Below are positions 1 through 13,782 of a stretch of 13,782 nt of DNA, piece after piece; within the stretch, counting starts at the first letter, position 1, and the number at the start of each line of letters is the position of its first letter. Position numbers and translations under genes: made by a program. The DNA is taken from UHGV virus genome UHGV-0081265; one strand, 5' to 3'. The notes beneath the pieces were generated by a model, which saw nothing but the letters and a program-made list of their open reading frames with translations, was not told the DNA's origin and searched no databases. The stretch is from a virus.

Positions 1-53
1 TCATCGGGCATTATCTGAACATAAAACACTATCAATAAGTTGGAGTCATTACC
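1..53 (-). mobile_element. IS1 terminal fragment (left-end inverted repeat); body of the element lies outside the window to the left
   Basis: Bases 1-53 are the exact reverse complement of bases 13730-13782. The sequence GGTAATGACTCCAACTTATTGATAGTGTTTTATGTTCAGATAATGCCCGATGA matches the IS1 left end as I recall it. Confidence 0.85.
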
Positions 54-721
54 GCTGTCATGCTAATAATAAAAAGAGCAACTGACACAGCAAAAAGGGA
101 TAAGCCTGATACTAAACGATTAAAATTAAATTTCCTTTTAATAACTAATGAACTAGCTAAATTGACCATGTTATAGGGGACCATAATTATAAGTCCTATT
201 AATATTATTTTTTCAGGAAGATTGTTCACCTGTATATGATGTTGAGCCAAGCTTCCAATATATACTGAAATCATAGAGGATATTACTATTTTTGCTGGGG
301 ATACATCTCGCAAAAATATGTATATATAGACTGTAATTGCACAAATCATTGCCCCTATTGGAAATGAGAGCATGAAAGCATAAGCTAATGTCGAGTAATT
401 AAGGTTTTCTGGGACTATACCATAAGCTATGTCAAGCTTAAACTTTGCGATCCATAAGCATACGGAATATGTAAAGCCAGTTACGCCCCATTTAACTACT
501 GCATTATTAAATACTTTATTTAATAAATCACGATATCCTATGTATACACTGGTTAATAAAGCTATAGATGATAGGAAAATTGGAGCGGCAATGTATATAT
601 TTTCTAGCCATAATGGGTTTTCTACAATCAAGTATCCAAAAGGTATTAAGTATATTATAGCCAATAGTTGAGGGTTGTTTAATTTTGGTGATGCATCAAC
701 TAACTTATTTTTATAATCCAT
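32..721 (-). CDS. polytopic membrane protein (at least 7-8 predicted TM helices), C-terminally truncated/altered by the IS1 insertion; function unknown
   Basis: 229-aa minus-strand ORF with many hydrophobic helices (e.g. LLAIIYLIPFGYLIV, IILIGLIIMVPYNMVNLASSLVI, LVSGLSLFAVSVALFIISMTAV). Very AT-rich. The last ~7 codons and the stop lie inside the IS1 end (positions 32-53), so the native 3' end is missing. It starts 10 bp after the upstream integrase stop. Confidence 0.55.
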   Translation of the reverse strand: MDYKNKLVDASPKLNNPQLLAIIYLIPFGYLIVENPLWLENIYIAAPIFLSSIALLTSVYIGYRDLLNKVFNNAVVKWGVTGFTYSVCLWIAKFKLDIAYGIVPENLNYSTLAYAFMLSFPIGAMICAITVYIYIFLRDVSPAKIVISSMISVYIGSLAQHHIQVNNLPEKIILIGLIIMVPYNMVNLASSLVIKRKFNFNRLVSGLSLFAVSVALFIISMTAVMTPTY

Positions 722-730
722 ACAACGTCC

Positions 731-1834
731 TTATTTCAACTTTAACGCCAAATCTTCAGCTTTTGGATGATAATACCGCATTAGCATTCTTGGATCTTTA
801 TGTCCTGTAATTTTGGTTAGTTCATGCATAGGGAAAATTTCAGCAAGTCGAGAAGTTGCTTCATGTCGAAGGTCATGAAATCTTAAATCTTTAAGGAAAG
901 ATTCATCACATAATGAGTTTGTTTTCTCGTATCGTTCTCTGGCTCGTTTTACAGCTCGGTCAAAAGCTCGGGTAATCGCGTCTGCACGCATATCAAAAAC
1001 CTTATCAGCAGCTGGCTTAGAATGTTCCTTGAGACTGGACAGTATCGTAATGGCTTTCGTTGATAAAGGGACATCGCGGGCATTACCATTCTTAGTATCC
1101 GGCAGATGTGCAACTCGCCGATCAAGATCGATAAAGCGCCATCGAAGCTCTGCGATTTCGCTACGGCGCATGGCTGTCTCTAACGCCAGAAGAATGATTG
1201 CTGGCAATACTAATGAATGTGTTGCGGCGATGATATGTTCGATCTCGTTGGCTATTTGCTTTCCTGACGTAACACCGGTTTTCTCAGAAACTACAGGCAG
1301 CGCTTCCAGGCGTCTGGTCCTGGAGTTCTTGGGTTGGGGTTTGCGAATGGCCTCTACGGGGTTCAGCAGGCTCTCCATGCCCCATTCTTTCCGCGAAACA
1401 TTGAATACATGAGAAAGTAAGGCCAAACGCCTTAAAACGGTTGCAGGAGCATAGATTTTCAACCATTCATCTCTCAGCTTGGCGACATCGGCACTCCTGA
1501 TGCTGGCCATATAGTTTTTCGCCAGCTGAGTGCCTTTTAGTATCCGCACCAATGATCGGTCTTGCACTGCCCCTTTTTTGTCGGGAACAATCTCTTTTTC
1601 ATATCGCGTTAGGGCTTCATACAATGTCGTAGATTCCGCTTCGCTGCGGCTAAGCCAAACTCCTCTCGCCATTTCTGACTCGATCATTTTGGCCCAAGCT
1701 TCTGCTTCTACTTTGGTGTTAAAGGTTTTGGTTTGAGAGGGAAAACCACGTTTACGGATTTGAGCTTCCCATTGGTAGTTACCACGTTTGCGTATAGTCG
1801 CCATTTCTGTCTGATTCCTAACGAACTGTGGCAA
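731..1834 (-). CDS. int: tyrosine-type site-specific recombinase / phage integrase
   Basis: 367-aa ORF with the catalytic signature of tyrosine recombinases: Arg in ETAMRRSEIAELRW, His-x-x-Arg in FHDLRHEATSRL, Tyr in MLMRYYHPK. Its start lies ~58 bp from the tRNA-Thr fragment. Confidence 0.85.
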   Translation of the reverse strand: MPQFVRNQTEMATIRKRGNYQWEAQIRKRGFPSQTKTFNTKVEAEAWAKMIESEMARGVWLSRSEAESTTLYEALTRYEKEIVPDKKGAVQDRSLVRILKGTQLAKNYMASIRSADVAKLRDEWLKIYAPATVLRRLALLSHVFNVSRKEWGMESLLNPVEAIRKPQPKNSRTRRLEALPVVSEKTGVTSGKQIANEIEHIIAATHSLVLPAIILLALETAMRRSEIAELRWRFIDLDRRVAHLPDTKNGNARDVPLSTKAITILSSLKEHSKPAADKVFDMRADAITRAFDRAVKRARERYEKTNSLCDESFLKDLRFHDLRHEATSRLAEIFPMHELTKITGHKDPRMLMRYYHPKAEDLALKLK

Positions 1835-1892
1835 TATTGTGGCAAAAAATCCATTTAAATTCGATAGGTATTGATTTTACAAGATCAATTTA

Positions 1893-1941
1893 CGCATTCG
1901 TAATGCGAAGGTCGTAGGTTCGACTCCTATTATCGGCACCA
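1893..1941 (+). other. partial tRNA-Thr (thrW-like) 3' segment, 49 nt, ending in CCA; attachment-site remnant, not a complete tRNA gene
   Basis: CGCATTCGTAATGCGAAGGTCGTAGGTTCGACTCCTATTATCGGCACCA matches the anticodon-loop-to-CCA portion of E. coli tRNA-Thr(CGU) as I recall it. The upstream sequence does not continue into the D-arm or acceptor stem. Confidence 0.7.
1925..1941 (+). repeat. 17-bp att core direct repeat, left copy (TCCTATTATCGGCACCA)
   Basis: Identical 17-mer occurs again at 13351-13367. Together they bracket an ~11.4 kb gene set that begins with an integrase. Confidence 0.75.
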
Positions 1942-2053
1942 TCTCTTAGTATTTCCAAGTCATCTCAAATCAACAAAACCCTTTAAAAACATAGATATTA
2001 CGCGATTTTTCGTCATTTGACGTCAACCCCTATCTCTTGAAATCAACATACAA

Positions 2054-2106
2054 TTGGGGGCACAATCGGGGGCATGTTCTGTTCGGTCTAGGAAATGTGC
2101 CCCCAA
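2054..2106. promoter_or_regulatory. GGGGGCA repeat cluster with an 11-bp inverted repeat (TTGGGGGCACA / TGTGCCCCCAA) ending at the integrase start codon; candidate Int arm-type sites and/or start-sequestering hairpin
   Basis: Direct GGGGGCA copies at 2056-2062 and 2068-2074, inverted copy at 2096-2106 abutting the ATG at 2106. Similar GGGGGCAT motifs sit on the other side of the att core at 13269-13292. Confidence 0.4.
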
Positions 2107-3287
2107 TGATGCTGAATGCCCGCAAGGTTGAAGCCGCTAAAGGAAAAGAGAAGAGCTATAAGCTATCTGATGGAGGTGGCCTGTACCTTCAGGTTGAACC
2201 TAATGGCTCGCGTTACTGGCGTATGAAGTATCGTTTTGCTGGTAAAGAGAAGCGCTTGTCCTTTGGTGTCTATCCAACAGTCACCCTCGCAGATGCCAGA
2301 CAAAAACGCGAAGACGCAAAGAAACTACTCGCAGCAGGTGAAGATCCTGGCGAAGTGAAAAAAGCAAAGAAGCATGCTTTAAACGCAGCGACCGAGACAC
2401 TTAACCCATTCAGAGAAGTGGCGTTAGAGTGGCACAAAATGAAATCTCCCAAATGGTCTGAGGGCTATGCTTCAGACATCATTGAGGCGTTTGAGAAAGA
2501 CATTTTCCCGCATATTGGACACAGACCTATAGCCGATATTCAGCCCCTAGAACTACTTGAAGTACTGAGGTTGATAGAAGCACGAGGCGCTATGGAGAAA
2601 GCGAAGAAAGTCCGTCAGCGATGCGGTGAAGTTTTCCGCTATGCCATCGTAACGGGTAGAGCAATCTACAATCCTGCACCGGATCTTGCCAGTGCGATGC
2701 AAGGACATGAAGCAGTCCACTATCCATTCCTCAAAGCCAACGAGCTGCCGGAGTTCTTTACTGCCCTTAACGCTTATTCAGGAAGCCCAATTGTATTGCT
2801 GGGGGCACATTTACTTATCCTGACGGGTCTAAGAACAGGAGAGCTAAGAGCAGGTGAGTGGCGTGAGGTGGATTTTGATAATGCGGTGTGGGAGATTCCC
2901 AAAGAACGTATGAAAATGCGACGTGCTCATATTGTGCCGCTTTCAAATCAAGCATTAGTCCATCTTGAAACCTTAAAAGAACTGACTGGAAACTATCCTT
3001 TGATGTTTCCTGGGCGTAACGATCCAAGTAAGTGCATGAGTGAGGCCAGTATTAATCAGGTCTTTAAGCGTATTGGATATGCTGGCCGTGTTACTGGCCA
3101 TGGCTTCAGACACACAATGAGCACTATTTTGCATGAAAAAGGCTTCAATAGTGCATGGATTGAAACCCAGCTTGCACATTTGGATAAAAATGCTATTCGG
3201 GGGATATACAATCATGCTCAGTATCTTGAGGGGCGTCGGGAAATGATGCAATGGTACAGTGATTTTATTGGTGGAACGGAGTCTTGA
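2106..3287 (+). CDS. int: P4-family tyrosine integrase (start moved to the internal ATG at 2106; the ORF-track start at 2037 is a TTG)
   Basis: N-terminal arm-binding-type region (KLSDGGGLYLQVEPNGSRYWRMKYRFAGKEKRLSFGVYPTVTLADARQKRED) typical of P4-like integrases. Catalytic Arg (LTGLRTGELR), His-x-x-Arg (GHGFRHT) and Tyr (IRGIYNHAQY). Lies directly downstream of the tRNA 3' fragment in the same orientation. Confidence 0.9.
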   Translation: MMLNARKVEAAKGKEKSYKLSDGGGLYLQVEPNGSRYWRMKYRFAGKEKRLSFGVYPTVTLADARQKREDAKKLLAAGEDPGEVKKAKKHALNAATETLNPFREVALEWHKMKSPKWSEGYASDIIEAFEKDIFPHIGHRPIADIQPLELLEVLRLIEARGAMEKAKKVRQRCGEVFRYAIVTGRAIYNPAPDLASAMQGHEAVHYPFLKANELPEFFTALNAYSGSPIVLLGAHLLILTGLRTGELRAGEWREVDFDNAVWEIPKERMKMRRAHIVPLSNQALVHLETLKELTGNYPLMFPGRNDPSKCMSEASINQVFKRIGYAGRVTGHGFRHTMSTILHEKGFNSAWIETQLAHLDKNAIRGIYNHAQYLEGRREMMQWYSDFIGGTES

Positions 3288-3290
3288 GTA

Positions 3291-4079
3291 ATGGCAAATA
3301 ATACTCTCAAGCTTCATCGAACTCATTATAGCATTAGTGAGACCGCTAAAATATTGGGCTGCGATGAGCAAGATGTTATTTATATTGCGGATGAAAAAGA
3401 CATTCCATTGTCGCTAAGAATGTGTGGGCGATGGTCTTTTTCAAAGCATAAAGTAAGAGATGTGGACTCCTTTATTCAGAATATAAACTCTTTGAAAAAA
3501 GACAAAGATGGTTTCAGTTATATATCTGAGTTTAGTTTGATTAAGATTAATGAAGTTAAAAAAGATAAAAAACTAGTGCTGGCGAGTACAAAAGGCTATT
3601 TCCAAATGCCACCAAAGGTTAAAAGTGATTTCGTTTTTTATGAAGGGCAGTTCCCGGAGTACCCATCATTGTTATCTCCTGCTGGTACCACCTATTCTGA
3701 AATGGTCAAATATATTCAAATTGACTGGAAAAATGATGATGGGTTTGGATATGAGGGAGATGCGTACCTGGAGCGGGAAGATGTAAAGAAATTGCATCTA
3801 ATATTAAATGATGATGTTTCTAATGATAAATATAAATCGTTATCAATTGCACAGCAAGAAAGACATGCTACCAAGAGAAATGAGATTCTAAGTGTAGCAT
3901 TATATCTTTATAAAGAGGATATGGCATACCGAAAGGAAAATGCAGCAGCCCTTGCTGACCTTATCTTTAGTCGGGCTGAGGAATTTTGGCCTGATAAAAA
4001 AGAGCCTCCGCTATCACACCCAATTATTAGCAAACTAATATCATCTATATTCAAGAAACCATCATTTACAAAAAATTAA
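3291..4079 (+). CDS. hypothetical protein: N-terminal excisionase/AlpA-type HTH plus ~190-aa domain of unknown function; AT-rich
   Basis: ATG 4 bp after the int stop with RBS GGAACGGAG. Residues ~14-60 (ISETAKILGCDEQDVIYIADEKDIPLSLRMCGRWSFSKHKVRD) resemble the Xis/AlpA helix-turn-helix. Markedly lower GC than the flanking int gene. Followed by a strong terminator. Confidence 0.7.
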   Translation: MANNTLKLHRTHYSISETAKILGCDEQDVIYIADEKDIPLSLRMCGRWSFSKHKVRDVDSFIQNINSLKKDKDGFSYISEFSLIKINEVKKDKKLVLASTKGYFQMPPKVKSDFVFYEGQFPEYPSLLSPAGTTYSEMVKYIQIDWKNDDGFGYEGDAYLEREDVKKLHLILNDDVSNDKYKSLSIAQQERHATKRNEILSVALYLYKEDMAYRKENAAALADLIFSRAEEFWPDKKEPPLSHPIISKLISSIFKKPSFTKN

Positions 4080-4086
4080 CAATTTT

Positions 4087-4121
4087 GGCGAGTAAGGAGA
4101 TTTTTCTTACTCGCCTTTTTT
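4087..4121 (+). terminator. rho-independent terminator ending the int-orf262 transcription unit
   Basis: 10-bp perfect stem GGCGAGTAAG / CTTACTCGCC, 9-nt loop, followed by TTTTTT. Confidence 0.8.
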
Positions 4122-4186
4122 ATATTTTTGAACGATGTTTTAATCCTCTTCGTTGATATAGATTGATACATAGAGAGGAACTCATT

Positions 4187-4387
4187 ATGGGGTTTACTGA
4201 TAATCGTCCTTCTGCTGACTCGCTCATTGATATGAAATTCATTACATCTGATTGTCTTTTTACTGATAAATGGATTTATAAACTGATTTCTCTGGGACGT
4301 TTTCCTAAACCAATCAAGTTAGGTCGTATGTCCCGATGGCGTGCTGGTGACTACTATGCTTGGCGTGATAGTCATTCTTCAGAGTAA
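4187..4387 (+). CDS. alpA: AlpA/Vis-family phage transcriptional regulator / excisionase-like DNA-binding protein
   Basis: Sequence FITSDCLFTDKWIYKLISLGRFPKPIKLGRMSRWRAGDYYAW is the classic AlpA-family HTH motif. Start placed at ATG 4187, 6 nt after RBS AGAGAGGA; the ORF-track start at 4163 is a TTG. Confidence 0.8.
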   Translation: MGFTDNRPSADSLIDMKFITSDCLFTDKWIYKLISLGRFPKPIKLGRMSRWRAGDYYAWRDSHSSE

Positions 4388-4423
4388 AAACATTAGTATT
4401 AGAAGCATTTATGAGGAGTTTAT

Positions 4424-5296
4424 ATGAATTACCGTCTACAACCAGCGGGGAGTCAATACATATCCCTTCCAATTAAGAATGAATATGTTTCCGTGTTAGG
4501 AAACTATAAAGTAAGTCCGTTTAAAGAAACTCATAGCGACACTGCATGTATTGTGCGAATTATTGAAATATTTTCATTGAATAAGCTGCGCGCTAAAGGT
4601 GAAAAGCTGTATTCACTTACGGGGTTAACAGTACCTGATACGGAAGCTGTGGCGAATGAGATCAACCTGCTCCTGAGCCGTTATGCCCAGTTGTGTCGTC
4701 AGGAAGAGGAAGAGTTATCTTTCCGGCAGCGTGAAGTGACAAATGCGGAAGTTGCATGGAAAAGCACATTCTCAAAAAACGGCGTCAGTAGCATTGCTGA
4801 AGCCAAAACGAATAAAACGGGGCATGCTGAACGAGCGGATGCTGAACGGTGTTACCATCTGGCTGTTTCTCGGCTGAATGAGCAACATAGCCGACTGAGC
4901 ACAATCAAGCTTTTACCGGGCGTACTGGTCGATGAAGTTAACTACATTGGTAAGGGAGTTGAGAAGCGTTTACTGAGCATATTTCCTCAATCCGGCCAGA
5001 TCCCTGCTGATTTTATTTCTGTGTTTAATGACAGTGACGTTGTTCGTGATATTAAATTTATTACAGATGCACTCAAATCTTTGTCTGATTCTGTGAATGA
5101 AATTATTAGCCGTTGTAGCGTTCCAACTGATCGTTATGTATTAAATAACGGTGGAATGGCAAGAGCTATGGCTTACAGGGAGTACTATCGAGCAGATAAT
5201 TATGTATTACGTTCAGTCGTTAGTGACCGGGATTATGTTGAGCATGTAATGAAATACAATCGGGTTACTGAGTACAAAAATAAAATCTTTTCTTAA
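4424..5296 (+). CDS. hypothetical protein, 290 aa; possible head-morphogenesis partner of the downstream capsid homolog
   Basis: Good RBS (GAGGAG) before ATG 4424. Sits immediately upstream of the GpN-like gene (23-bp gap). No family recognised by eye. The capsid-related role is inferred from position only. Confidence 0.6.
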   Translation: MNYRLQPAGSQYISLPIKNEYVSVLGNYKVSPFKETHSDTACIVRIIEIFSLNKLRAKGEKLYSLTGLTVPDTEAVANEINLLLSRYAQLCRQEEEELSFRQREVTNAEVAWKSTFSKNGVSSIAEAKTNKTGHAERADAERCYHLAVSRLNEQHSRLSTIKLLPGVLVDEVNYIGKGVEKRLLSIFPQSGQIPADFISVFNDSDVVRDIKFITDALKSLSDSVNEIISRCSVPTDRYVLNNGGMARAMAYREYYRADNYVLRSVVSDRDYVEHVMKYNRVTEYKNKIFS

Positions 5297-5318
5297 ATAC
5301 TAAAAAAGGTGAAAAACT

Positions 5319-6323
5319 ATGTATGCCTTCAAAACTGAAAGGCCGGACGCAGCACGTCGTTATCATAATAAATTCGTCACTGGTACTAACTATCAGGAGG
5401 AATCAAACAGACGCTTTGCATTAAGCGAACCCACTGAAAATATACTGCGTACCTCAATTCTGGAATCCGGGTGGCTTATTAAAAATATCACCCTACGTGA
5501 TGTTAACGCCGTGTCAGGTAATGCCGTCAATATTGGTGCCAGTGAACTGCATACCGGACGTGTGGATGGTGGCCGTTTCCACAAAAAAATGGCAATCAAT
5601 GGTACGGAGTTCTTTCTGACAGAGACGGATACCTGCGCCCGGATCAGCTATTCCGATATGTCTCATATTTACCATACCGGCGTGCCGGATGAGTTTGAGA
5701 AAACGGTTGAGAGCTTTTTTTCCCAGGCATATGCGCTGGACATGCTGCGGGTCGGTTTCAACGGTGTGTCGATTGCAAATACTACAAACCCGGAAATCAA
5801 TAAAAAAGGCGAGGATGTCAATATTGGCTGGCATGCACTGGCGAAAGCTTACGGGAACGGGAAGCAAATCATTTCTGAGCCTGTCACGCTGGGAGAGTCT
5901 GGCACCTGGAAAAACATTGATGCTCTGGCCAACCATCTGATTACTGAGCTTATTGCTGAGCAGTTTCGTGAAGATCCCCGTCTGGTTGTACTGGTTGGGG
6001 CAGAGCTGGCAGCACATCAACGCCTGAAGTTATTTAATGCCGCAGACCGCCCGGCTGATGTGAATGCGGCACAGATGGCGACAAGTTCTGTTGCTGGCCG
6101 CTTTGCGTTTATTCCCCCGTTTATGCCGGGTAAGCGTCTGGTAGTAACGACGCTGGATAATTTGCATATTTACACTCAGGCGATAACACGGTGGTTTCGT
6201 GCTGAGTTTGATGATGAAAACAGTGAATACGTACATTCCTACCTGCGTAATGAAGGCTATGCACTCGGTGAACCTGAACTGTACGCGGCTGTCGATGAGA
6301 GCGCCCTGACGTTTGCTGATTGA
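5319..6323 (+). CDS. P2 GpN-family major capsid protein homolog (HK97-fold capsid protein)
   Basis: 334 aa with RBS AAGGTGA. Several blocks align to P2 GpN as I recall it: ALDMLRVGFNGV vs SLDFIMAGFNGV; DALANHLITELIAEQFREDPRLVVLVGAELAA vs DALVMDATNNLIEPWYQEDPDLVVIVGRQLLA; TTLDNLHIYT vs TKLENLSIYY. Similar length to GpN (357 aa). Confidence 0.7.
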   Translation: MYAFKTERPDAARRYHNKFVTGTNYQEESNRRFALSEPTENILRTSILESGWLIKNITLRDVNAVSGNAVNIGASELHTGRVDGGRFHKKMAINGTEFFLTETDTCARISYSDMSHIYHTGVPDEFEKTVESFFSQAYALDMLRVGFNGVSIANTTNPEINKKGEDVNIGWHALAKAYGNGKQIISEPVTLGESGTWKNIDALANHLITELIAEQFREDPRLVVLVGAELAAHQRLKLFNAADRPADVNAAQMATSSVAGRFAFIPPFMPGKRLVVTTLDNLHIYTQAITRWFRAEFDDENSEYVHSYLRNEGYALGEPELYAAVDESALTFAD

Positions 6324-6336
6324 CTTAGCGACAGAA

Positions 6337-6363
6337 AGACCCGCTCAGAGGCGGGTCTCGTTT
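6337..6363 (+). terminator. putative rho-independent terminator after the capsid-homolog gene
   Basis: 8-bp stem AGACCCGC / GCGGGTCT with 6-nt loop, followed by a short T-tract (CGTTTA). Confidence 0.55.
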
Positions 6364-6520
6364 ACAGCATCAGGAAAAATGAAGAACTATTTTTAAGCAG
6401 AGGCTTAAGCATGCCAGCGTTAATTAATCCAGGCAATCATCAGTTTTCGGTTATAAATTTCTTGCCTCACAAGGAATACGCGGGATATAGTTCAAAGGTT
6501 GCCGCAAAATCGGCAGCCGG

Positions 6521-6786
6521 GCGTAGGAACCCGTGTAATCTAACGGCGACACAACACGCGCCAGGCGTGTTTTTTTGTGTCGTAGCTTTGACTCACCTTC
6601 GTTTTATGGTGTGGTGGCTGACTGCATGTTTTTATTTTTTACGCCACATCATCAGAATTATGGTAGTCCAGGCGGGGCAGCTTTCGGGCTGGCCGGTATC
6701 CGTTAGAGCCGGTATTCCTACCCCCGTCTGGGCTACCACCCATGAGCGTAGGAACTCCGGTGGTAGCGTTACCCGCTATCTAACGG
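6521..6786 (+). ncRNA. P4-type RNA immunity region: two direct repeats (seqA-like 6521-6546, seqC-like 6746-6786) flanking a complementary seqB-like element (6700-6721); candidate CI-RNA-like immunity RNA
   Basis: GCGTAGGAAC...ATCTAACGG occurs twice. Between them, CCGTTAGAGCCGGTATTCCTAC is the reverse complement of both sub-blocks (GTAGGAA and TCTAACGG). An internal terminator (6554-6576) and a 9-bp stem (GCTACCACC / GGTGGTAGC, 6731-6767) are present. Position upstream of the small-ORF/primase operon matches P4 organisation. Confidence 0.45.
6554..6576 (+). terminator. rho-independent terminator inside the immunity region
   Basis: Stem ACACGC / GCGTGT with 5-nt loop, followed by TTTTTT. Confidence 0.7.
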
Positions 6787-6797
6787 AGGTTGCCATT

Positions 6798-7001
6798 ATG
6801 GCTACAGTCCCTGCTTTATCTCACCCTGAATTTACCTTTGTTTTTCTGGCTGTCCGCCGTACAGACCGTGATGCCTGTCCACGTCCTGTGCGTGTAATCG
6901 CAGACTGCGAGCATGCTGCACGACTCAAACTTGCCACTGAATTTATCCTGAGCTTTGCTGCCCGTATCCCTGTGAAAAGCGCCGGGGAGGTGGTTGCATG
7001 A
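6798..7001 (+). CDS. small hypothetical protein (~67 aa), first gene of the replication operon
   Basis: ATG 6798 preceded by GGAGG. This is the C-terminal in-frame part of the 196-aa ORF-track entry, whose upstream part overlaps the terminator and repeats and is probably not translated. Stop overlaps the next start (ATGA). Confidence 0.5.
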   Translation: MATVPALSHPEFTFVFLAVRRTDRDACPRPVRVIADCEHAARLKLATEFILSFAARIPVKSAGEVVA

Positions 7002-7234
7002 AATCCATGAATTTTAAGCAAGGCTGCATATTGAGCGAACTAGGTGAGAGTCGTCTGTTACGGGCGGCACTGGCCAGTGAGTTTCTTGCAGAGGTCCTGT
7101 CCGTTCCCACAGTGAATGGAGCGAGAACTGTTTCAGCGGAAGGCGCTGCGGCTTTAGTGGCCTGTATTGCCGAACAACTGGATGGCGTTGTTAAGGAAAC
7201 CAGCACAATTAAGGGAGTGATGCGCGATGAATAA
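6998..7234 (+). CDS. small hypothetical protein (78 aa), translationally coupled
   Basis: ATG overlaps the upstream stop (ATGA), RBS GGGGAGG. Position is analogous to the epsilon/derepression genes of P4-like elements; no motif recognised. Confidence 0.55.
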   Translation: MKSMNFKQGCILSELGESRLLRAALASEFLAEVLSVPTVNGARTVSAEGAAALVACIAEQLDGVVKETSTIKGVMRDE

Positions 7235-7637
7235 TAATCAAAATTTAAAGGCGCATGCTTTACGAACAGCAGTCTTACGGTACTACATTGCTGATTCATT
7301 CATTTCCTTAATGGAGCGTGTTCATAATGAACCTGTTTATATTGAAGATGGCGAACGAATAGAACTCACCCACGAAAAAGTGGTGAGTAATATTATTTAC
7401 CATATTGAAATGCCGTGGGTGAATGAGTTTGGGGCTGATGCAGGTTGCATACTGGCCGCAGAAAAACTGGAAAAAATGCTTAAACCGGGCTTTATGTCAG
7501 AAAATATTCGCCTGTCAGTTTTTGGTGTCACAGAGATGCGTGAGGTTTACCGGGATATTATTTTCGGTGCACCTGATGGCGAACTACCCGAAGGTTTTGA
7601 GTTTGTGAAGCCGGAAGGTCAGGAGGTGCTGCTGTGA
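7227..7637 (+). CDS. hypothetical protein (136 aa), translationally coupled to the primase
   Basis: Start overlaps the upstream stop. Its own stop TGA overlaps the GTG start of the primase gene. Confidence 0.6.
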   Translation: MNNNQNLKAHALRTAVLRYYIADSFISLMERVHNEPVYIEDGERIELTHEKVVSNIIYHIEMPWVNEFGADAGCILAAEKLEKMLKPGFMSENIRLSVFGVTEMREVYRDIIFGAPDGELPEGFEFVKPEGQEVLL

Positions 7638-10321
7638 AAACACCGTCTGTATCCACGATTTCCGGGGCTGCAATTGGGCGCTGGCCTTATATCCTGTCAG
7701 CATTAGGTATCAAAGTACCGTCCGCAGGACATCATGGGGCTTGCCCTGCCTGTGGTGGCAAAGATCGCTTTCGGCTGGACGATAAAGCGGGGCGTGGGAC
7801 GTGGTTTTGTAATCAGTGCGGTCATGGCGATGGTCTTGATCTGGTTCGTCTGGTGACAGGAAGAAAGATAAAAGAAGTCGCCGGGATGGTATCTGAGGCG
7901 CTTGCATTACCAGAAATACAGGAGAAGCCCGCTTTGCCTGCCAGGAAAAAGGCCGCAGGAAAAGAAGCGGGCGCGGAGCGATATACCAGACTCAGACAGC
8001 AGTCCTGCAATGGTGAACCGGTCTATCTGACAAACAAGGGCTTACATGGGTATTCACTTCCCTTGCTGTCACAGCCTTTGAATCTGGCCGGAATAACATT
8101 TTCCTCCGGTTCATTACTGCTGCCGTTGACGGATATTTCCGGGAATATTACTGGTGGCCAGCTTATCAATCCTGACGGGGATAAAAGTCTGCTGCCCGGT
8201 AGCCAGCTGTCTGGCGCATTCATTGCCCTGACCGATATACCCGCTGAAACACCTGAACAGGTGATTATAACAGAGGGTTTTGCCACGGCGCTTACCGTCA
8301 GTCTGCTGACTGAAGGATGGATCGTGGCGGCTGTTGCTGCCACCAATTTACTGAAGGTGACGGAGCAGATCCGGAAACGCTGGCCGGAAACCCGGATCAT
8401 TCTGGCTGGCGATAATGATCTGGCTGACGGGAAAGAAAACACCGGGCGTATTCAGGCAGAGAAAGCTGCCAAAGCAGTGGATGGCTGGGTAACGCTCCCT
8501 CCGGTACGCCATAAGGCTGACTGGGATGATTATCGGCAGGAAGTGGGGAAAGAACGGGCGAGAGATGCCTTTCGTGAAGAAATGACGCTGCATGGCAAAG
8601 GGCAGACCCGTTTACCAGAAGGGTTCCGGCTGACAAAAGAATATTTGTGGTACGACAAGCTGGTTAATAAGTCTGATGGTGATACGGAGATACGAAATAT
8701 CAAAATTTGCAGTCCGTTACGGGTGACGGCAATCACCAGTGATGCTGATGGAAGTAATTACGGGCGTTTGCTGGAATGGGAAGATACCAACGGAAACAGC
8801 CGTAAATGGGCAATGCCAATGGAGATGCTGGGTGGCAGCGGGGAAGAGCTGCGCCGCGTTCTGCTGGTTAACGGGCTTTCTTACATCAACATTAACGGTA
8901 TGGCCAGAGCATTCCTTATGGAATATATCTCGCTGTGTAAACCGGACAGAAAAGTAACCTGTGTAAATAAAACGGGCTGGCACGGCGGGGTTTACGTTCT
9001 CCAGGATGAAGTGATAGGACGTGAAGCCCAGTCAGTCATCTTACAAACGTCGAGTGTGCAGGGGCGTGATTTTCGTGTCAGCGGTACATCAGAGGACTGG
9101 CGTGAAAATATAAGCCGTTACTGCATAAATAATGCCCGTCTTGCCTTTGCGGTGAGTCTGGCATTTGCTGCCCCCCTTCTGAAACTGGTTGGTATCGGCG
9201 GTGGAGGTTATCACCTCAAAGGGGAATCAACGGATGGTAAAACCACGACGATGAAAGTGGCTGCTTCAGTATGTGGTGGAACAGATTTCTGGCATACGTG
9301 GCGGGCGACGGGGAATGCCTTAGAAGGAACGGCGAGCCGCCGTAATGATGCCACGCTGATGCTGGATGAAATCCGGGAGGTTGACGGCAGGGAGGCGGGG
9401 AATATCGCTTATATGCTGGCTAACGGGCAGGGCAAAGCCAGAGCCAGAACAGATGGTTCGGTAAGGGAAACCAACCGCTGGAATCTGTTGTTTCTGTCCA
9501 CCGGGGAACTGTCACTGGTAGAACATGCGGCAAGCGCCGGGGAACGTACGTATGCCGGGGTTGAGGTCAGAATGATCCAGATCCCAAGCGATTCGGGCAA
9601 ATATGGCGTGTTTGAAGAACTTCATGGCTTCAGTAGCGGGAAAACCCTGGCAGAGCATCTTGAGCAGCATGTAGCGCATTATCATGGCGCACCATTCCGC
9701 GACTGGCTGCATTGCCTGACCGCTGATCTGCCGGAACTGACCAGCCAGGCCAAAGCCTTATTGAAAGAGTACACCCGAAGGCTGACGCCGGAAAATGCCG
9801 GGAATCAGGTTGGCCGGGCTGTTACCCGTTTTGCTCTGGTTGCAATGGCCGGGGAACTGGCCACAAAAGCGGGCATCACAGGATGGCCGGAGGGAGAGGC
9901 CTTTCGTGCCGCCCAAAGTTGTCTGGCTGCATGGATGGCTGACCGGGGCCATACAGCTAATCAGGAAGATAAAGCGGCACTTGAACAGGTACGGGACTTC
10001 ATGACGCGTAATCAGTTCAGTCGGTTTGCTGACTGGAATGACGACAGGAACCGGCCTGTTTCAATGATGGGATTCAGAAAAGTCGATAAAGGAGACAACG
10101 TGACAGAGCCGGTTGTGACGTTCTACGTTCTCCCATCAGGCTGGAAGGAGATCTGTAAGGGATTTGATTCGCGTAAGGTGGCTAGGTTGTGTGTGGACGC
10201 GGGCTGGCTGAAACCCGGTGAAGATGGCCGGACGCAAAACAGCATTCGCCTGCCAGAAATAGGGCTTAAACGTGTGTACCAGTTCAATACGCAGGTACTG
10301 GGAAGCGCCGAACCGGAGTAA
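7634..10321 (+). CDS. P4 alpha-like bifunctional DNA primase-helicase
   Basis: 895 aa. N-terminal zinc ribbon (CPACGG...CNQCGH), TOPRIM motifs (IITEGFATALTVS; ILAGDND), P-loop helicase Walker A (GESTDGKTT) and Walker B (LMLDEIRE). GTG start 8 nt after AGGAGG. Confidence 0.9.
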   Translation: MKTPSVSTISGAAIGRWPYILSALGIKVPSAGHHGACPACGGKDRFRLDDKAGRGTWFCNQCGHGDGLDLVRLVTGRKIKEVAGMVSEALALPEIQEKPALPARKKAAGKEAGAERYTRLRQQSCNGEPVYLTNKGLHGYSLPLLSQPLNLAGITFSSGSLLLPLTDISGNITGGQLINPDGDKSLLPGSQLSGAFIALTDIPAETPEQVIITEGFATALTVSLLTEGWIVAAVAATNLLKVTEQIRKRWPETRIILAGDNDLADGKENTGRIQAEKAAKAVDGWVTLPPVRHKADWDDYRQEVGKERARDAFREEMTLHGKGQTRLPEGFRLTKEYLWYDKLVNKSDGDTEIRNIKICSPLRVTAITSDADGSNYGRLLEWEDTNGNSRKWAMPMEMLGGSGEELRRVLLVNGLSYININGMARAFLMEYISLCKPDRKVTCVNKTGWHGGVYVLQDEVIGREAQSVILQTSSVQGRDFRVSGTSEDWRENISRYCINNARLAFAVSLAFAAPLLKLVGIGGGGYHLKGESTDGKTTTMKVAASVCGGTDFWHTWRATGNALEGTASRRNDATLMLDEIREVDGREAGNIAYMLANGQGKARARTDGSVRETNRWNLLFLSTGELSLVEHAASAGERTYAGVEVRMIQIPSDSGKYGVFEELHGFSSGKTLAEHLEQHVAHYHGAPFRDWLHCLTADLPELTSQAKALLKEYTRRLTPENAGNQVGRAVTRFALVAMAGELATKAGITGWPEGEAFRAAQSCLAAWMADRGHTANQEDKAALEQVRDFMTRNQFSRFADWNDDRNRPVSMMGFRKVDKGDNVTEPVVTFYVLPSGWKEICKGFDSRKVARLCVDAGWLKPGEDGRTQNSIRLPEIGLKRVYQFNTQVLGSAEPE

Positions 10322-10347
10322 TTATCGCGTGAGTCTTATTTTTATGA

Positions 10348-10540
10348 GGTAACACTGGTAACAGAGGTAACGCCCGCTACTGATGCGGTTCTTCAGTGTT
10401 ACCAGTCAAAAATACTGACTGGTAACAGAGGTAACAAAAAATGGTGCGTTACCACGCGTTACCTCTTGATTATGTTAACTGGTAACAGATTAAATCCTTT
10501 TAAATCAATAGCGTTACACGTGTTACCAGTGTTACACGTT
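10348..10540. repeat. iteron array (GGTAACA / TGTTACC heptamers, at least 10 copies, direct and inverted); candidate crr/ori-type binding sites for the primase-helicase
   Basis: Copies at 10348, 10357, 10366, 10397 (inv), 10421, 10430, 10448 (inv), 10457 (inv), 10481, 10522 (inv). 17-bp direct repeat CTGGTAACAGAGGTAAC at 10355-10371 and 10419-10435. 12-bp perfect inverted repeat TGTTACCAGTCA / TGACTGGTAACA at 10397-10408 and 10416-10427. Lies immediately 3' of the primase gene, as P4 crr does; P4 iterons (TGTTCACC) are similar. Confidence 0.6.
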
Positions 10541-10603
10541 CAGAACAAGAGGTAGGGACCCAAATCCCTTCTTCTGGCGGGCAACAGTAAAGGGCACAGA
10601 ACG

Positions 10604-10876
10604 ATGAAGATGATGAGAATGTACTGCCCCACATGTCAGGCAGTAGCGCGGATAGGTAAAACAAACAGGAAACACCCACAACTGTACGATGTGTACTGCT
10701 ATTGCTCTAATGTGGAGTGCGGTCACTCGTTTGTGATGAATGTTGCTTTCTCCCATTCCGTTAGTCCAAGCGCGCTGAACGGGCAGGGGAGGGTTAAAGA
10801 GCTAATTGATGCCATTCCACCCGAGGAGCGGGAAAAGGCTTTAAAGTTGCTGCTGGCTGCGCAAAAGAATGGGTAA
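10604..10876 (+). CDS. Ogr/Delta-family zinc-finger late-gene transcriptional activator
   Basis: Cys spacing C-x2-C-x22-C-x4-C (YCPTCQ...CYCSNVEC) is the Ogr/Delta signature. Size (85-90 aa) is Ogr-like. The true start may be the internal ATG at 10619. Confidence 0.8.
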   Translation: MKMMRMYCPTCQAVARIGKTNRKHPQLYDVYCYCSNVECGHSFVMNVAFSHSVSPSALNGQGRVKELIDAIPPEEREKALKLLLAAQKNG

Positions 10877-11482
10877 AGTATGCGTCGGGAATGGCCGATC
10901 CGTTCCCGGAACCTGACCACAGGATTTCAGTTTATACGAACATAAAATTATTATTTTTCAATTTGTTATGTTTTTCGTATTTCACGAACCTTCATAAAAT
11001 CACACACCTAAAATAAATTATCCATTTAATATCATAGTGTTGCGTATTCAGGCCACAAATGCGACGGACAGTAAAACTGAAAAAAGCTGAATTTCTTTTC
11101 ATTCTTTTCAGTTCCTGCCTCGCAGTGCATCCCCAGCACGGACGCGGGCTGGCGGTATCGTTTGTAAAAAATCACAACTGAAAAATTTTAGTGATATGAA
11201 AACCGCAGGCGGGTGCGGTGTAGTGCGATTTTGGTCTTATAAAGATTTGTGTCTTAAAATTAATTAATGGTTTTAACTATTTGTTTGGAATTAATTTCAC
11301 AATGTACATGTTTGATATGAATGATAAATTAGTATATGCTTGAGTAAAGAAATGATGTATATTTTTATGGTCGAGGTGTAAGCGCTTTTTTGATGTATTT
11401 AATAGGTGTATGTTTTTATTAATCGGAGAATTGTTAATATTTATAATTGTTATAAAATAGAAATCGCTATGAAGGTGTGTAT

Positions 11483-12085
11483 ATGAGAGATAATTCAAAT
11501 AAAGTAAAGGGGTATGTAAGACGTAAAGTTGATTTGTATATTTTGTCATTAGCTATTTTATTTTGTTTTTTTATTTTTATTACAATAAAATTTCCTGTGT
11601 GTTTTGGGGCTAAATGTGAGTTCATTGGCTGGTCTTTGCTGTTGAAAAATAATATTGTTCCCTTGATTTGCGTAGGGTTGCTTTTATATTGTGGGGTGGC
11701 CTACAAAAGGTTTCAATATGACACAAATAAAAGTGTCGAACTTCCAATGAAAATAACAAAAATTGAAAAAATAAATTATGAGCACCTTACCTTTTTAGCC
11801 ACATATATTATCCCATTGATTACATTTGATTTTGAAAAAGAAAGGTATGTGATCGTTCTAGCAGTTCTCTTGATAATTATGGGTATTATTTATATTAAAA
11901 CGGATTTGTTTTACGCTAATCCATCCTTGGCTTTATTAGGGTTTAATATTTATAAGTTGGATGTGAGTATAACAGGAGGTATTAATAAAACAGGGCTAAT
12001 ATTAATTACTAGGCGACAGTTAAAAGAAAATGACATGATAAGTTATATTGTGCTTGATGAAAGAGTTTACTATTCTGGAGATTAA
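11483..12085 (+). CDS. small 4-TM membrane protein (200 aa); first gene of an AT-rich two-gene cargo; KwaA-like architecture, unverified
   Basis: ATG 11483 after RBS GAAGG. Four hydrophobic helices (LYILSLAILFCFFIFITI, IVPLICVGLLLYCGVAY, LTFLATYIIPLITF, YVIVLAVLLIIMGIIYI) then a ~60-aa soluble tail. Very AT-rich. A 10-bp gap separates it from the next gene. Confidence 0.65.
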   Translation: MRDNSNKVKGYVRRKVDLYILSLAILFCFFIFITIKFPVCFGAKCEFIGWSLLLKNNIVPLICVGLLLYCGVAYKRFQYDTNKSVELPMKITKIEKINYEHLTFLATYIIPLITFDFEKERYVIVLAVLLIIMGIIYIKTDLFYANPSLALLGFNIYKLDVSITGGINKTGLILITRRQLKENDMISYIVLDERVYYSGD

Positions 12086-12094
12086 GGATTAAAT

Positions 12095-13078
12095 ATGTCA
12101 CCGCAGCAATTGGATAAAAAAGGCTTGGATGATAATCTAAGTTATTATATTAATAATAAAGATGATATTTCTGTTATTGTTTATGCCATTCTAAAAAATA
12201 GCCCTGTTGCATATCGAATGGATATAGAGGGAAGCGCTCAAGATGGCCTCAAAGAATTATTTTTAGAAAGTATAAAAAATAATATCATTGATAATGATGA
12301 TATCAGTATTTTACCTCTTTCGTCAGCAGATGAAAGAAATAATGTTATTTATCATTACGATATTGAATGGCCTGATGAGTTAACCTCCATGCAAAGTATG
12401 CTTGGGCAGCAAGGGGAGAGTGTTTTTGATTTTAATGTACAAAATATTGAAGATATTAGAGTGTTGCTAATTTGTATTGGTAATGTACAACAACAAATTA
12501 TACTCTACAAAACAATGGCTCCAGTCAATATTTTCTCTCGCTCAGGTTTTTTTCTAAAAAAATCAGCAACAAGACTTGAGGAAATTGAAGATGATTTTTT
12601 TCGAGTTAGTGATAATTTTCAAATTATCAAAGTTGAAAATGATTTATATGTGGTAGATCTTAAGTTAATCGAGAAAATGTTTGGTTTTCACGAGGTTATC
12701 AAAAAAGAGGCTACACTTGGCATGAATGCCATTGAGAGTATGAATATTATCACTGATATAAATGTGATAAAAGAACTAATAGATGATGTAAAATATGCTA
12801 GAAAACTAACAAGGATAGCAAAATCTTCTCCAGTAATATTAGCTAATATTGAAAATGAAAAAATTATAGAGTTTTGTAAAACCTACCCAGTGTTGGTCAA
12901 TAGAATCAGATTTAATGAAGATGGAACAAAGATCGCACTTGACACGAAGGTTTCAAAAGATCTATTTATTAAAATTCTGATGGATGATTTTTTAACCTCA
13001 CAGTTGACTCAATTTTATTATGAGAGTCTAGCAAAAGATGCAGTAAAAATAGCCGCTGATAATACTAAAGAAAACTAA
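12095..13078 (+). CDS. 327-aa soluble protein, second gene of the two-gene cargo; size and context fit KwaB (DUF4868) of Kiwa, but domain not confirmed
   Basis: RBS AAGGA before ATG 12095. Acidic, AT-rich, no TM segment, no obvious nuclease or NTPase motif by eye. Followed by a terminator hairpin. Lies in the variable position next to attR. Confidence 0.65.
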   Translation: MSPQQLDKKGLDDNLSYYINNKDDISVIVYAILKNSPVAYRMDIEGSAQDGLKELFLESIKNNIIDNDDISILPLSSADERNNVIYHYDIEWPDELTSMQSMLGQQGESVFDFNVQNIEDIRVLLICIGNVQQQIILYKTMAPVNIFSRSGFFLKKSATRLEEIEDDFFRVSDNFQIIKVENDLYVVDLKLIEKMFGFHEVIKKEATLGMNAIESMNIITDINVIKELIDDVKYARKLTRIAKSSPVILANIENEKIIEFCKTYPVLVNRIRFNEDGTKIALDTKVSKDLFIKILMDDFLTSQLTQFYYESLAKDAVKIAADNTKEN

Positions 13079-13083
13079 TTAAT

Positions 13084-13109
13084 ATTGTGGTGAGATTATT
13101 CACCACAAT
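13084..13109. terminator. terminator-like hairpin after the cargo operon
   Basis: 10-bp perfect stem ATTGTGGTGA / TCACCACAAT with 6-nt loop in AT-rich context, 6 bp after the stop of the 327-aa gene. Confidence 0.5.
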
Positions 13110-13268
13110 AATATTATCTAATATATTGATTGTGTTTTAAGTGTTTTAATTCTATTGTGAAAAAATTGACTTTGTTTTGATTTGGCAAAATTATAGCTTT
13201 TCTATTACTCACCCTGATGAAATGATCGATTAATCTATCTAGCATGCTGAAGTTACAGCTAAGGTGTA

Positions 13269-13292
13269 GGGGGGGGGCATTTTAGGGGGCAT
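13269..13292 (+). promoter_or_regulatory. G-run / GGGGGCAT repeats adjacent to the right att core; candidate integrase arm-type sites
   Basis: GGGGGGGGGCAT (13269-13280) and GGGGGCAT (13285-13292), same motif as the copies next to the left att core at 2056-2075. Confidence 0.35.
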
Positions 13293-13350
13293 TGATATGA
13301 TTGTTGTATTTTTTTATTAACAAAAACATTGTGTTATCGTTGTATTTTGT

Positions 13351-13367
13351 TCCTATTATCGGCACCA
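13351..13367 (+). repeat. 17-bp att core direct repeat, right copy (TCCTATTATCGGCACCA)
   Basis: Exact copy of 1925-1941 (the tRNA-Thr 3' end). Upstream sequence no longer matches the tRNA, so this is the element-distal junction. Confidence 0.75.
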
Positions 13368-13644
13368 TTAAAATCAAATTGTTACGTAAGATCTTATCAT
13401 TCTCCCACCAAAAAATTATCTTAATGTAACAGCTGGTGTAAGTAAATTCTATCAACGAAGATCAATCTTATCTACTGACCAAAAAGGCCTGATAGGGCTT
13501 CGCTCACTATACATCCTTGGCTGCAGGTTTAGTTGTACACCACTCCTAAATTTAATGTGTTGGCAATGTGTTCAATAAAGCTCGAACAAATTAGCTCATT
13601 ATGATCGGTTAATACTTCAACTTCTGGTTGCATGATTGTTTGTC

Positions 13645-13683
13645 CGTAAAAAGATAACGCGCCTGCCGGGTAGTAGCAGGCGC
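13645..13683 (-). terminator. rho-independent terminator on the minus strand
   Basis: 8-bp stem GCGCCTGC / GCAGGCGC (13659-13666 and 13676-13683) with 9-nt loop. On the minus strand it is followed by GTTATCTTTTTACGG. Confidence 0.5.
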
Positions 13684-13729
13684 ATTACGCAATAGGTAAA
13701 CAAGGGAGGAAGTTCAGAAATGTAAATCG

Positions 13730-13782
13730 GGTAATGACTCCAACTTATTGATAGTGTTTTATGTTCAGATAATGCCCGATGA
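13730..13782 (+). mobile_element. IS1 terminal fragment (left-end inverted repeat); element continues beyond the right edge of the window
   Basis: GGTAATGACTCCAACTTATTGATAGTGTTTTATGTTCAGATAATGCCCGATGA, perfect inverted copy of bases 1-53. Confidence 0.85.

Follow-up and report, generated by a model that had tools for sequence, protein, structure and literature searches.

The DNA analysed here, a 13,782-nt stretch designated UHGV-0081265 and referred to throughout as the window, is very likely an IS1-bounded, repeat-bounded piece of chromosome from the thrW integration hotspot of Escherichia coli. Its components are the remnant of a genomic island, a P4-like satellite bearing the genes of the Kiwa defence system, and one edge of a CP4-6-type prophage. 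In the history that we propose, an island with traJ/trbJ/trbL remnants and its own integrase first entered thrW, leaving a 49-nt copy of the thrW 3' end at its far end, beside the CP4-6-type element. The 3.2-kb element IS1-corA-IS1 then inserted into one of the island's genes, for a membrane protein, with the 9-bp duplication seen in FAM21845; the IS1 at the left edge of the window is the right arm of this element. The satellite, carrying KwaA and KwaB, recombined site-specifically into the 49-nt thrW fragment with duplication of 18 nt, and finally another IS1, oppositely oriented, inserted some 20 bp downstream of ykfI to form the right edge. The relative order of the last three events (IS1-corA-IS1, satellite, right-hand IS1) is presumptive. 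The IS1-bounded arrangement is itself ordinary, already known biology. The features of the window are as follows.

1-53, plus strand: IS1 terminus, IRR end, by its sequence (equal to the end of the AH04 IS1A; carries the 3' end of insB; junction found in 8 complete genomes)
32-721, minus strand: truncated thrW-island gene encoding a multi-pass hydrophobic protein (BLASTP against GPEC60-12-649)
731-1804, minus strand: tyrosine integrase of the older thrW island (Pfam Phage_integrase, E = 1.6e-26)
1893-1941, plus strand: 3' 49 nt of the tRNA-Thr gene thrW, distal att repeat of the older island (K-12 thrW suffix)
1925-1942, plus strand: left-hand 18-nt direct repeat TCCTATTATCGGCACCAT, the satellite att core (100% identical to 13351-13368)
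1943-13350, plus strand: P4-like phage satellite (also in AH04, AH02 and CT01 at 100% identity; Pfam, PADLOC and Rfam)
2106-3287: satellite integrase
3291-4079 and 4424-5296: two unannotated satellite genes
4187-4387: AlpA-like helix-turn-helix gene of the satellite
5319-6323: P2-capsid-family gene of the satellite
6411-7001: Icd-like gene of the satellite
6498-6743: isrK and C4 RNAs of the satellite
7227-7637: DUF5375 gene of the satellite
7634-10321: primase/DUF927 gene of the satellite
10604-10876: Ogr/Delta gene of the satellite
11483-12085: kwaA (Kiwa defence) of the satellite
12095-13078: kwaB (Kiwa defence) of the satellite
13351-13368, plus strand: right-hand 18-nt att repeat (17 nt from the 3' end of thrW and 1 more)
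13369-13729, plus strand: first 361 nt of a CP4-6-type element (exact match to K-12 MG1655 downstream of thrW)
13730-13782, minus strand: second IS1 terminus, with its IRR end against the segment (exact reverse complement of 1-53)

IS1 ends and contig boundaries

The arms at 1-53 and 13730-13782 are inverted and complementary at 53 of 53 positions, where about 1e-24 such inverted pairs would be expected by chance; the runner-up inverted repeat within the window has 45 nt at 71%. Positions 1-53 equal the final 53 nt of the annotated 768-bp IS1A of strain AH04, and translation of positions 3-38 gives the C terminus of InsB (IGHYLNIKHYQ, the final 11 codons, followed by the stop). A matching terminus with an adjacent transposase 3' end was found at both ends of the window. 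Annotated IS1 copies have GGTGATGCTGCC... on the insA side and GGTAATGACTCC... on the insB side, and by the ISfinder convention the end downstream of the transposase gene is IRR. Judged by their sequence, both termini of the window are the IRR end of IS1, downstream of insB. The sequence-only reading had correctly described perfect inverted IS1 ends at both edges but had taken them for left ends. The IS1 bodies point outward at both edges, and both transposase genes read into the enclosed segment. The resemblance to E. coli IS1A-type elements extends from the terminal 53 nt and the encoded InsB C terminus to the 9-bp target duplication seen in relatives and the AT-rich left target (30% GC over 100 nt); unlike the annotated copies, the window holds just the ends of the element, and the 53-nt arm length marks merely where the sequence was cut. 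Of the 5,426 complete E. coli genomes, 4,965 have a match to the IS1 right end; the junction query found a median of 10 matching places per genome. The IS1 bracketing is real yet commonplace, and short-read contigs routinely terminate in IS1.

The same segment was found in other assemblies. Metagenome contig L009 (13,925 nt, k127, MEGAHIT) contains a 13,676-nt core 100% identical to the window and runs 125 and 124 nt into IS1 at its two sides, where the two stretches are still perfect inverted copies and differ by one mismatch from the AH04 IS1 copy. An isolate assembly (GCA_017185715.1; L010) corresponds to window positions 57-13725, and 11 further similar places were reported. The two contigs suggest that the window is itself an assembler-terminated contig, probably cut just inside two IS1 copies by a short-read assembler. 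When an exact-protein look-up was carried out with a 290-aa satellite protein, this segment turned up only as the repeat-terminated contigs L009 and L010, and on long contigs the satellite lay in other contexts (the AH04 type, the primary thrW site and a LysR/XdhC-side locus).

The idea that assembly alone produced the terminal inverted repeat (from a single IS1, a hairpin or chimeric contig, or circular-contig overlap), so that the segment is not truly bracketed by two IS1 copies, is so improbable as to be almost negligible. In its favour, the ends halt at an arbitrary 53 nt, contigs of short-read assemblies typically end in collapsed repeats, and a collapsed repeat node would make both arms perfectly identical. 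Against it, three independent sequences (the window, L009 and L010) break at the same two places, and the left junction is seen with a full IS1 in eight finished genomes. Overlap of a circular contig, which had been named beforehand as an outcome that would undo the IS1 interpretation, was rejected: it would give a direct repeat, and the observed repeat is inverted.

The left junction and IS1-corA-IS1

The minus-strand ORF at 32-721 is truncated, with 223 native codons followed by 6 codons and a stop from IS1. The intact gene has 296 codons and was cut by IS1 after codon 223; in BLASTP the truncated product showed 223/224 identity to the intact 296-aa protein of strain GPEC60-12-649. It has five to six hydrophobic stretches between residues 19 and 227, and no Pfam or PADLOC family matched it. 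The exact left junction is present in 8 complete E. coli genomes among the 5,426 searched, at the identical position in the thrW island each time. All eight have an annotated IS1 transposase at the junction (the frameshifted gene being intact in most), and the IS1 concerned always forms the right arm of a 3.2-kb composite transposon, IS1-corA-IS1. In strain FAM21845 the 9-bp target duplication GCTGTCATG flanks the entire IS1-corA-IS1 unit; one copy of this duplication corresponds to window positions 54-62, and the remainder of the membrane-protein gene survives beyond the unit. Truncation of the gene by IS1, as originally proposed, is thus confirmed (223 of 296 residues are left), but the accompanying statement that IS1 had replaced its 3' end was overstated, because FAM21845 shows an insertion with a 9-bp duplication and the 3' part of the gene lies beyond IS1-corA-IS1. 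For annotation, the truncated 229-codon ORF is best treated as a pseudogene.

IS1-corA-IS1 has 9-bp target duplications at two different loci; a literature search for an IS1-flanked corA element found nothing specific. Rearrangements caused by its right arm are evident in relatives. In NCTC9008 the same IS1 arm made an adjacent deletion, so that its IRR end abuts ykgL, and strains H1, YJ6, LR-48 and 23CRST021 have an altered left flank at this arm.

The thrW fragment, the older island and the satellite

Positions 1893-1941 are an exact 49-nt suffix of K-12 thrW. ARAGORN called no tRNA at these positions, the Rfam tRNA model scored 22.3 bits, under its gathering score of 29, and the stretch does not make up a complete tRNA cloverleaf, only the 3' 49 nt being equal to thrW. 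In relatives, a 112-nt "tRNA-Ser" is annotated over the fragment, which is probably a miscall. The integrase of the older island is 357 aa long as annotated, with the ORF open to position 1834, and is the site-specific integrase WP_001396517.1 of FAM21845 and GPEC60-12-649.

In FAM21845, window positions 54-1942 are joined directly to 13369 onward, the satellite being absent, and the identical 49-nt thrW fragment is present without it. The strain also has an intact thrW, 14.7 kb upstream and at the opposite end of the island, and in this genome the 49-nt sequence occurs only in the full thrW and at the island's far end. No IS1 was found between the thrW fragment and ykfI in FAM21845. Because this strain carries the fragment without the satellite and has thrW 14.7 kb upstream, the 49-nt sequence is the att repeat at the distal end of an older island integrated in thrW. 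Inversion or transposition through IS1 had been offered in the sequence-only reading to explain why a tRNA fragment, and not a full gene, adjoins the satellite. Comparison with a relative does not support this: without the satellite and without a right-side IS1, FAM21845 retains the fragment together with an intact thrW 14.7 kb upstream. IS1 had no part in creating the tRNA fragment. The fragment was left behind by the older island as an att repeat, and no IS1 rearrangement is needed to account for its position next to the satellite.

Several observations show site-specific integration of the satellite. It is flanked by the 18-nt direct repeat, that repeat occurs once at the empty site of FAM21845, and an integrase gene (2106-3287) lies at one end of the element. 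The satellite thus took the 49-nt thrW fragment as a secondary attB, duplicating 18 nt. The same satellite adjoins full-length thrW in three other records (L005, L008 and L012). These findings show that a P4-like satellite can attach at the leftover att repeat of an older island to give a three-element tandem array at thrW, in the order intact thrW, island, 49-nt thrW copy, satellite, 17-nt thrW copy, CP4-6-type element, with the middle of the three elements having used the leftover repeat. This array does not differ in kind from other tandem arrays at tRNA genes, among them those at thrW (CP4-6 in K-12, P22-like and SfV-type phages). A short match of at least 99% identity was found in 106 phage records; all six among the matches listed lie in the 3' segment of thrW, as would be expected of attP.

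The gene content of the element is that of P4-like satellites: an integrase, a P2-capsid-family gene, an Icd-like gene with C4 and isrK RNAs, a DUF927 primase and Ogr/Delta. Also in keeping with such satellites is the predicted Kiwa system (KwaA/KwaB) in the variable region before attR; P4-like satellites reportedly have hotspots for anti-phage cargo (Rousset et al. 2022). The two unannotated satellite genes matched no Pfam or PADLOC family, and a marginal mad1 match (E = 0.008) from the Pfam/PADLOC search of these genes and the membrane protein was disregarded.

The right junction and possible rearrangements of the segment

About 20 bp separate the CP4-6-type stretch from the 3' end of ykfI, and the right-hand IS1 sits about 20 bp downstream of that gene. 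The match to K-12 continues into position 13731 because the target also reads GG. The right IS1 junction was found in none of the 5,426 complete E. coli genomes, and scans of genome-contig and metagenome-contig collections gave no match to the exact junction; a candidate in strain MEW (H121) was rejected, as its two matching pieces were spread over 384 nt of the record. AH04 and L008 have an independent IS1, in the same orientation and with a direct 9-bp target duplication, 160 bp from the right junction, which shows that simple IS1 insertions do occur in this intergenic stretch. We infer that the right-hand IS1 is also a simple insertion, and that the segment still lies in its ancestral place and orientation; the target repeat on that side is predicted to be TGTAAATCG, followed by GGAAGGTTGTACG...ykfI.

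In principle, an inverted pair of IS1 copies could allow inversion or composite transposition of the segment between them; the window itself bears no sign of either. Adjacent deletions and inversions mediated by IS1 are classical knowledge, including from work on the gal region, and the segment could have been inverted relative to its ancestral orientation in one of two ways: by intramolecular replicative transposition, the left-hand IS1 transposing within the molecule to a site near ykfI, or by subsequent homologous recombination of the two inverted copies. The replicative route necessarily leaves the two IS1 copies inverted, each with its IRR end towards the inverted segment, an exact geometric fit to the order found here (IRR, segment, IRR, the two IRL ends pointing outward), and the adjacent deletion in NCTC9008 is the sister outcome of intramolecular transposition, from the same IS1 arm. 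However, an independent insertion yields the same geometry with a 1-in-2 chance, and the AH04/L008 element, 160 bp away, is just such a plain insertion in the same orientation. Moreover, the four IS1 junction sequences read the same whether or not the segment is inverted, and the window therefore cannot speak for inversion. The case thus resembles known IS1 adjacent deletions and inversions in that the same IS1 end faces the segment on both sides and relatives show an adjacent deletion, and differs from them in offering geometry alone, which is the same for either orientation. We therefore regard inversion as unlikely and prefer simple insertion of the right-hand IS1. A rearranged state could nevertheless have arisen in this lineage, given that the same IS1 arm was rearranged in NCTC9008, H1, YJ6, LR-48 and 23CRST021.

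It is extremely unlikely that the 13.7-kb segment and its two IS1 copies constitute a composite transposon that moved as a unit and relocated the satellite and Kiwa. IS1 composite transposons with inverted arms do exist, the IS1 examples including Tn9, Tn1681 (inverted IS1 arms) and Tn2901/argF (in the CP4-6 region of K-12). The segment is bracketed by two IS1 ends, inverted as in Tn1681, and the neighbouring IS1-corA-IS1 has 9-bp target duplications at two loci. Against this, both inner edges of the segment naturally adjoin, in relatives, what lies beyond the IS1 copies (on the left the island gene, on the right the CP4-6 edge with ykfI), and the left junction occupies one thrW island position in eight of eight complete genomes. 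No second genomic context for the unit was found among complete E. coli genomes and plasmid and phage records, and no record in the plasmid and phage collections covered the 13.7-kb core to at least 80%. The window, L009 and L010 all stop short of the outer flanks. Unlike established IS1 composite transposons, the 13.7-kb unit was seen with neither a flanking duplication nor a second location, whereas the adjacent 3.2-kb IS1-corA-IS1 has both. A larger nested compound element (IS1-corA-IS1-segment-IS1), able to flip or transpose the satellite, the Kiwa genes and two integrases, is very unlikely. If it did exist, the satellite could move independently of helper phage and integrase, and its recurrence in a dozen or more assemblies would reflect spread of a unit and not clonal descent.

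The IS1-corA-IS1 composite transposon was found in 143 complete genomes and may merit separate study.

IS1 copies at the window ends

The window begins and ends with a perfect inverted repeat of 53 nt (1-53 and 13730-13782), for which the chance expectation is about 1e-24; the runner-up inverted repeat in the window is 45 nt long with 71% complementarity. Window 1-53 is identical to the final 53 nt of an annotated 768-bp IS1A copy in Escherichia coli AH04, and window 3-38 encodes the InsB C terminus IGHYLNIKHYQ*. In annotated IS1 copies, about 55 nt separate the GGTGATGCTGCC end from the transposase start, and the stop lies 15 nt short of the GGTAATGACTCC end; the window therefore carries the insB-distal end, which by the usual convention is IRR and not the left end named in the sequence-only reading. 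The two IS1 bodies extend outward from the intervening segment, with their transposase genes directed toward it. In L009, an independent 13,925-nt contig from a human-gut metagenome, a 13,676-nt core is 100% identical to the window and is followed on its two sides by 125 and 124 nt of IS1, still as perfect inverted copies; an isolate contig (L010, GCA_017185715.1) is identical to window 57-13725. Together with eleven further similar places reported, these contigs confirm that the bracketing by inverted IS1 copies is real and recurrent. The 53-nt arm length is set only by the cut-off of the sequence, where an assembler most likely broke within a repeat.

Layout between the IS1 ends (window coordinates)
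32-721, minus strand: truncated ORF
731-1804, minus strand: tyrosine integrase
1893-1941: 3' 49 nt of the tRNA-Thr gene thrW
1943-13350: P4-like satellite
13351-13367: second partial thrW copy
13369-13729: K-12-identical stretch (the sequence after thrW), 361 nt, stopping about 20 bp short of ykfI

The 229-aa ORF at 32-721 matches residues 1 to 223 of a 296-aa hydrophobic protein of strain GPEC60-12-649, and its final six codons and stop are supplied by IS1, in agreement with the proposed truncation of a membrane-protein gene. The exact junction is common to eight complete genomes. In one of these, FAM21845, the junction IS1 is the right arm of a unit comprising IS1(-), 1,706 bp with ysgD-corA, and IS1(+), both IRR ends facing outward. 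A 9-bp duplication, GCTGTCATG, present once in the intact gene, flanks the whole unit, and the 3' remainder of the gene survives beyond it. The event was therefore insertion of a composite transposon and not, as had been suggested, replacement of the 3' end of the gene. The corA unit adjoins the left junction in all eight genomes that have it.

This 3,242-bp composite transposon, IS1(-)/yigE fragment-ysgD-corA/IS1(+) with IRR ends outward, abuts window base 1 and is the most notable by-product of our analysis (FAM21845, L002 2781-6000; also L016 to L021). Of 5,426 complete E. coli genomes, 143 carry it, with two or three matching places in each carrier listed, and every genome examined has it at a different locus (yehE/yehD, near hipA, a prophage acyltransferase, ydeT, or the thrW island). 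Perfect 9-bp duplications flank it at two independent sites, in FAM21845 and in KFu022 (GGCAACATC). Where copy number was checked, as in these two strains, the element appears to provide an extra copy of corA. No description of it was found in the literature searched.

The thrW fragment and satellite integration

In FAM21845, window 54-1942 is joined directly to 13369 onward, and the identical 49-nt thrW fragment is present without the satellite; there is no IS1 between the fragment and ykfI, on its right side. proB-proA-thrW lies 14.7 kb upstream, and in this genome the 49-nt sequence has just two sites, one within thrW and one at the island's distal end, beside the island integrase. The fragment is therefore the far att repeat of an older island integrated at thrW. 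An 18-nt direct repeat borders the satellite (1925-1942 and 13351-13368) and is single at the empty site, and full-length thrW adjoins the same satellite in three other assemblies (L005, L008, and L012). There are 106 phage records with a short match of at least 99% identity to the core; the six listed match the thrW 3' segment, placed as an attP would be. Site-specific integration of the satellite into the att copy left behind fully accounts for the layout and does not need IS1, so we reject an IS1 inversion or transposition as the origin of the tRNA fragment. Overall, the basic observation of the sequence-only reading stands, but its labelling is partly wrong and its proposed link to the fragment is wrong.

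RefSeq annotates a 112-nt tRNA-Ser in relatives over window 1830-1941 (L002 7777-7888 and L003 7777-7888). ARAGORN found no tRNA in this stretch, the Rfam tRNA score there is 22.3 bits (gathering score, 29), and thrW accounts for just the final 49 nt; the annotation is probably a miscall.

Origin of the bracketed arrangement

K-12 and FAM21845 are uninterrupted through the right IS1 site to ykfI. The right junction (13729/13730) was found in none of the 5,426 complete E. coli genomes, nor in scans of genome-contig and metagenome-contig collections. AH04, AH02, CT01, and L008, in which the satellite is 100% identical, carry a same-orientation IS1, flanked by the 9-bp duplication GGCAATGTG, at a site 160 bp left of the right-hand IS1 in the window (window 13562-13570; L001 19676-20443; L008 15765-end). 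Simple IS1 insertions therefore strike this short intergenic stretch repeatedly, and the two right-hand IS1 copies are independent hits.

Plain in situ IS1 insertions are, with good confidence, the origin of the arrangement. Movement of the 13.7-kb unit by composite transposition is unlikely: in relatives, the segment's two inner edges natively adjoin the sequence past the IS1 copies, the left junction lies at one and the same thrW island position in 8/8 complete genomes having it, and the unit was not found elsewhere in any genome, plasmid, or phage record searched. Inversion of the segment, whether by homologous recombination between the inverted IS1 copies or by replicative transposition of the left IS1, within the same molecule, into the site near ykfI, would yield exactly the IRR/segment/IRR geometry, but all four IS1 junction sequences are identical with or without it, such that the window fits both states and only connectivity through the 768-bp IS1 bodies differs; we regard inversion as improbable. 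All components are of known kinds: the two ends belong to the known IS1 insertion type, the array is one of tandem integrative elements at thrW, and the satellite is P4-like and carries Kiwa.

In NCTC9008, the right IS1 arm of the corA element abuts ykgL (L017 10373 onward), an adjacent deletion that removed the rest of the island and the whole CP4-6-type element. In strain H1, the integrase remnant of a P22-like prophage lies directly against the left arm (L016 6400-7002). Relatives thus show this IS1 to be active in rearrangement, and IS1 repeatedly drives decay of the thrW array.

Satellite cargo and relatives

The satellite encodes an integrase, two unannotated proteins, an AlpA-like regulator, a P2-capsid-family protein, an Icd-like protein, a DUF927 primase, Ogr/Delta, and KwaA/KwaB. 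The two unannotated genes (262 and 290 aa; 3291-4079 and 4424-5296) lie between the integrase and the conserved core and match no family in Pfam or PADLOC. The core, from about 4470, is conserved across many genomes and the stretch with these genes varies; in some related records, sce7725/sce7726 genes are annotated under the match. This stretch appears to be a second variable cargo region, additional to the one between Ogr/Delta and attR that holds the complete Kiwa anti-phage pair (11483-13078; PADLOC KwaA, E = 4e-83; KwaB, E = 3e-131). Within the Icd-like gene region, Rfam matches to isrK (6498-6575; 71.8 bits) and C4 antisense RNA (6656-6743; 81 bits) reproduce the arrangement of P4-type immunity RNAs. 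Between the primase gene and ogr, 10334-10550 contains clustered direct and inverted repeats with GGTAAC/GTTACC units, including two exact copies of ACTGGTAACAGAGGTAAC; these are probably the replication-origin iterons of the satellite.

Apart from the window's own context, the same gene set, with an identical 290-aa protein, occurs in at least three others: at the primary thrW site next to proA-thrW (L005, L008, and L012), in the AH04-type prophage-side position, and beside LysR/XdhC-family genes, a locus next to xanthine dehydrogenase accessory genes (L007 and L011). OX345456.1, deposited as a Salmonella enterica plasmid of 6,989 bp, is 97.5% identical to the satellite core (window 4417-10916) over almost its whole length and may represent a plasmid-state or excised P4-like satellite.
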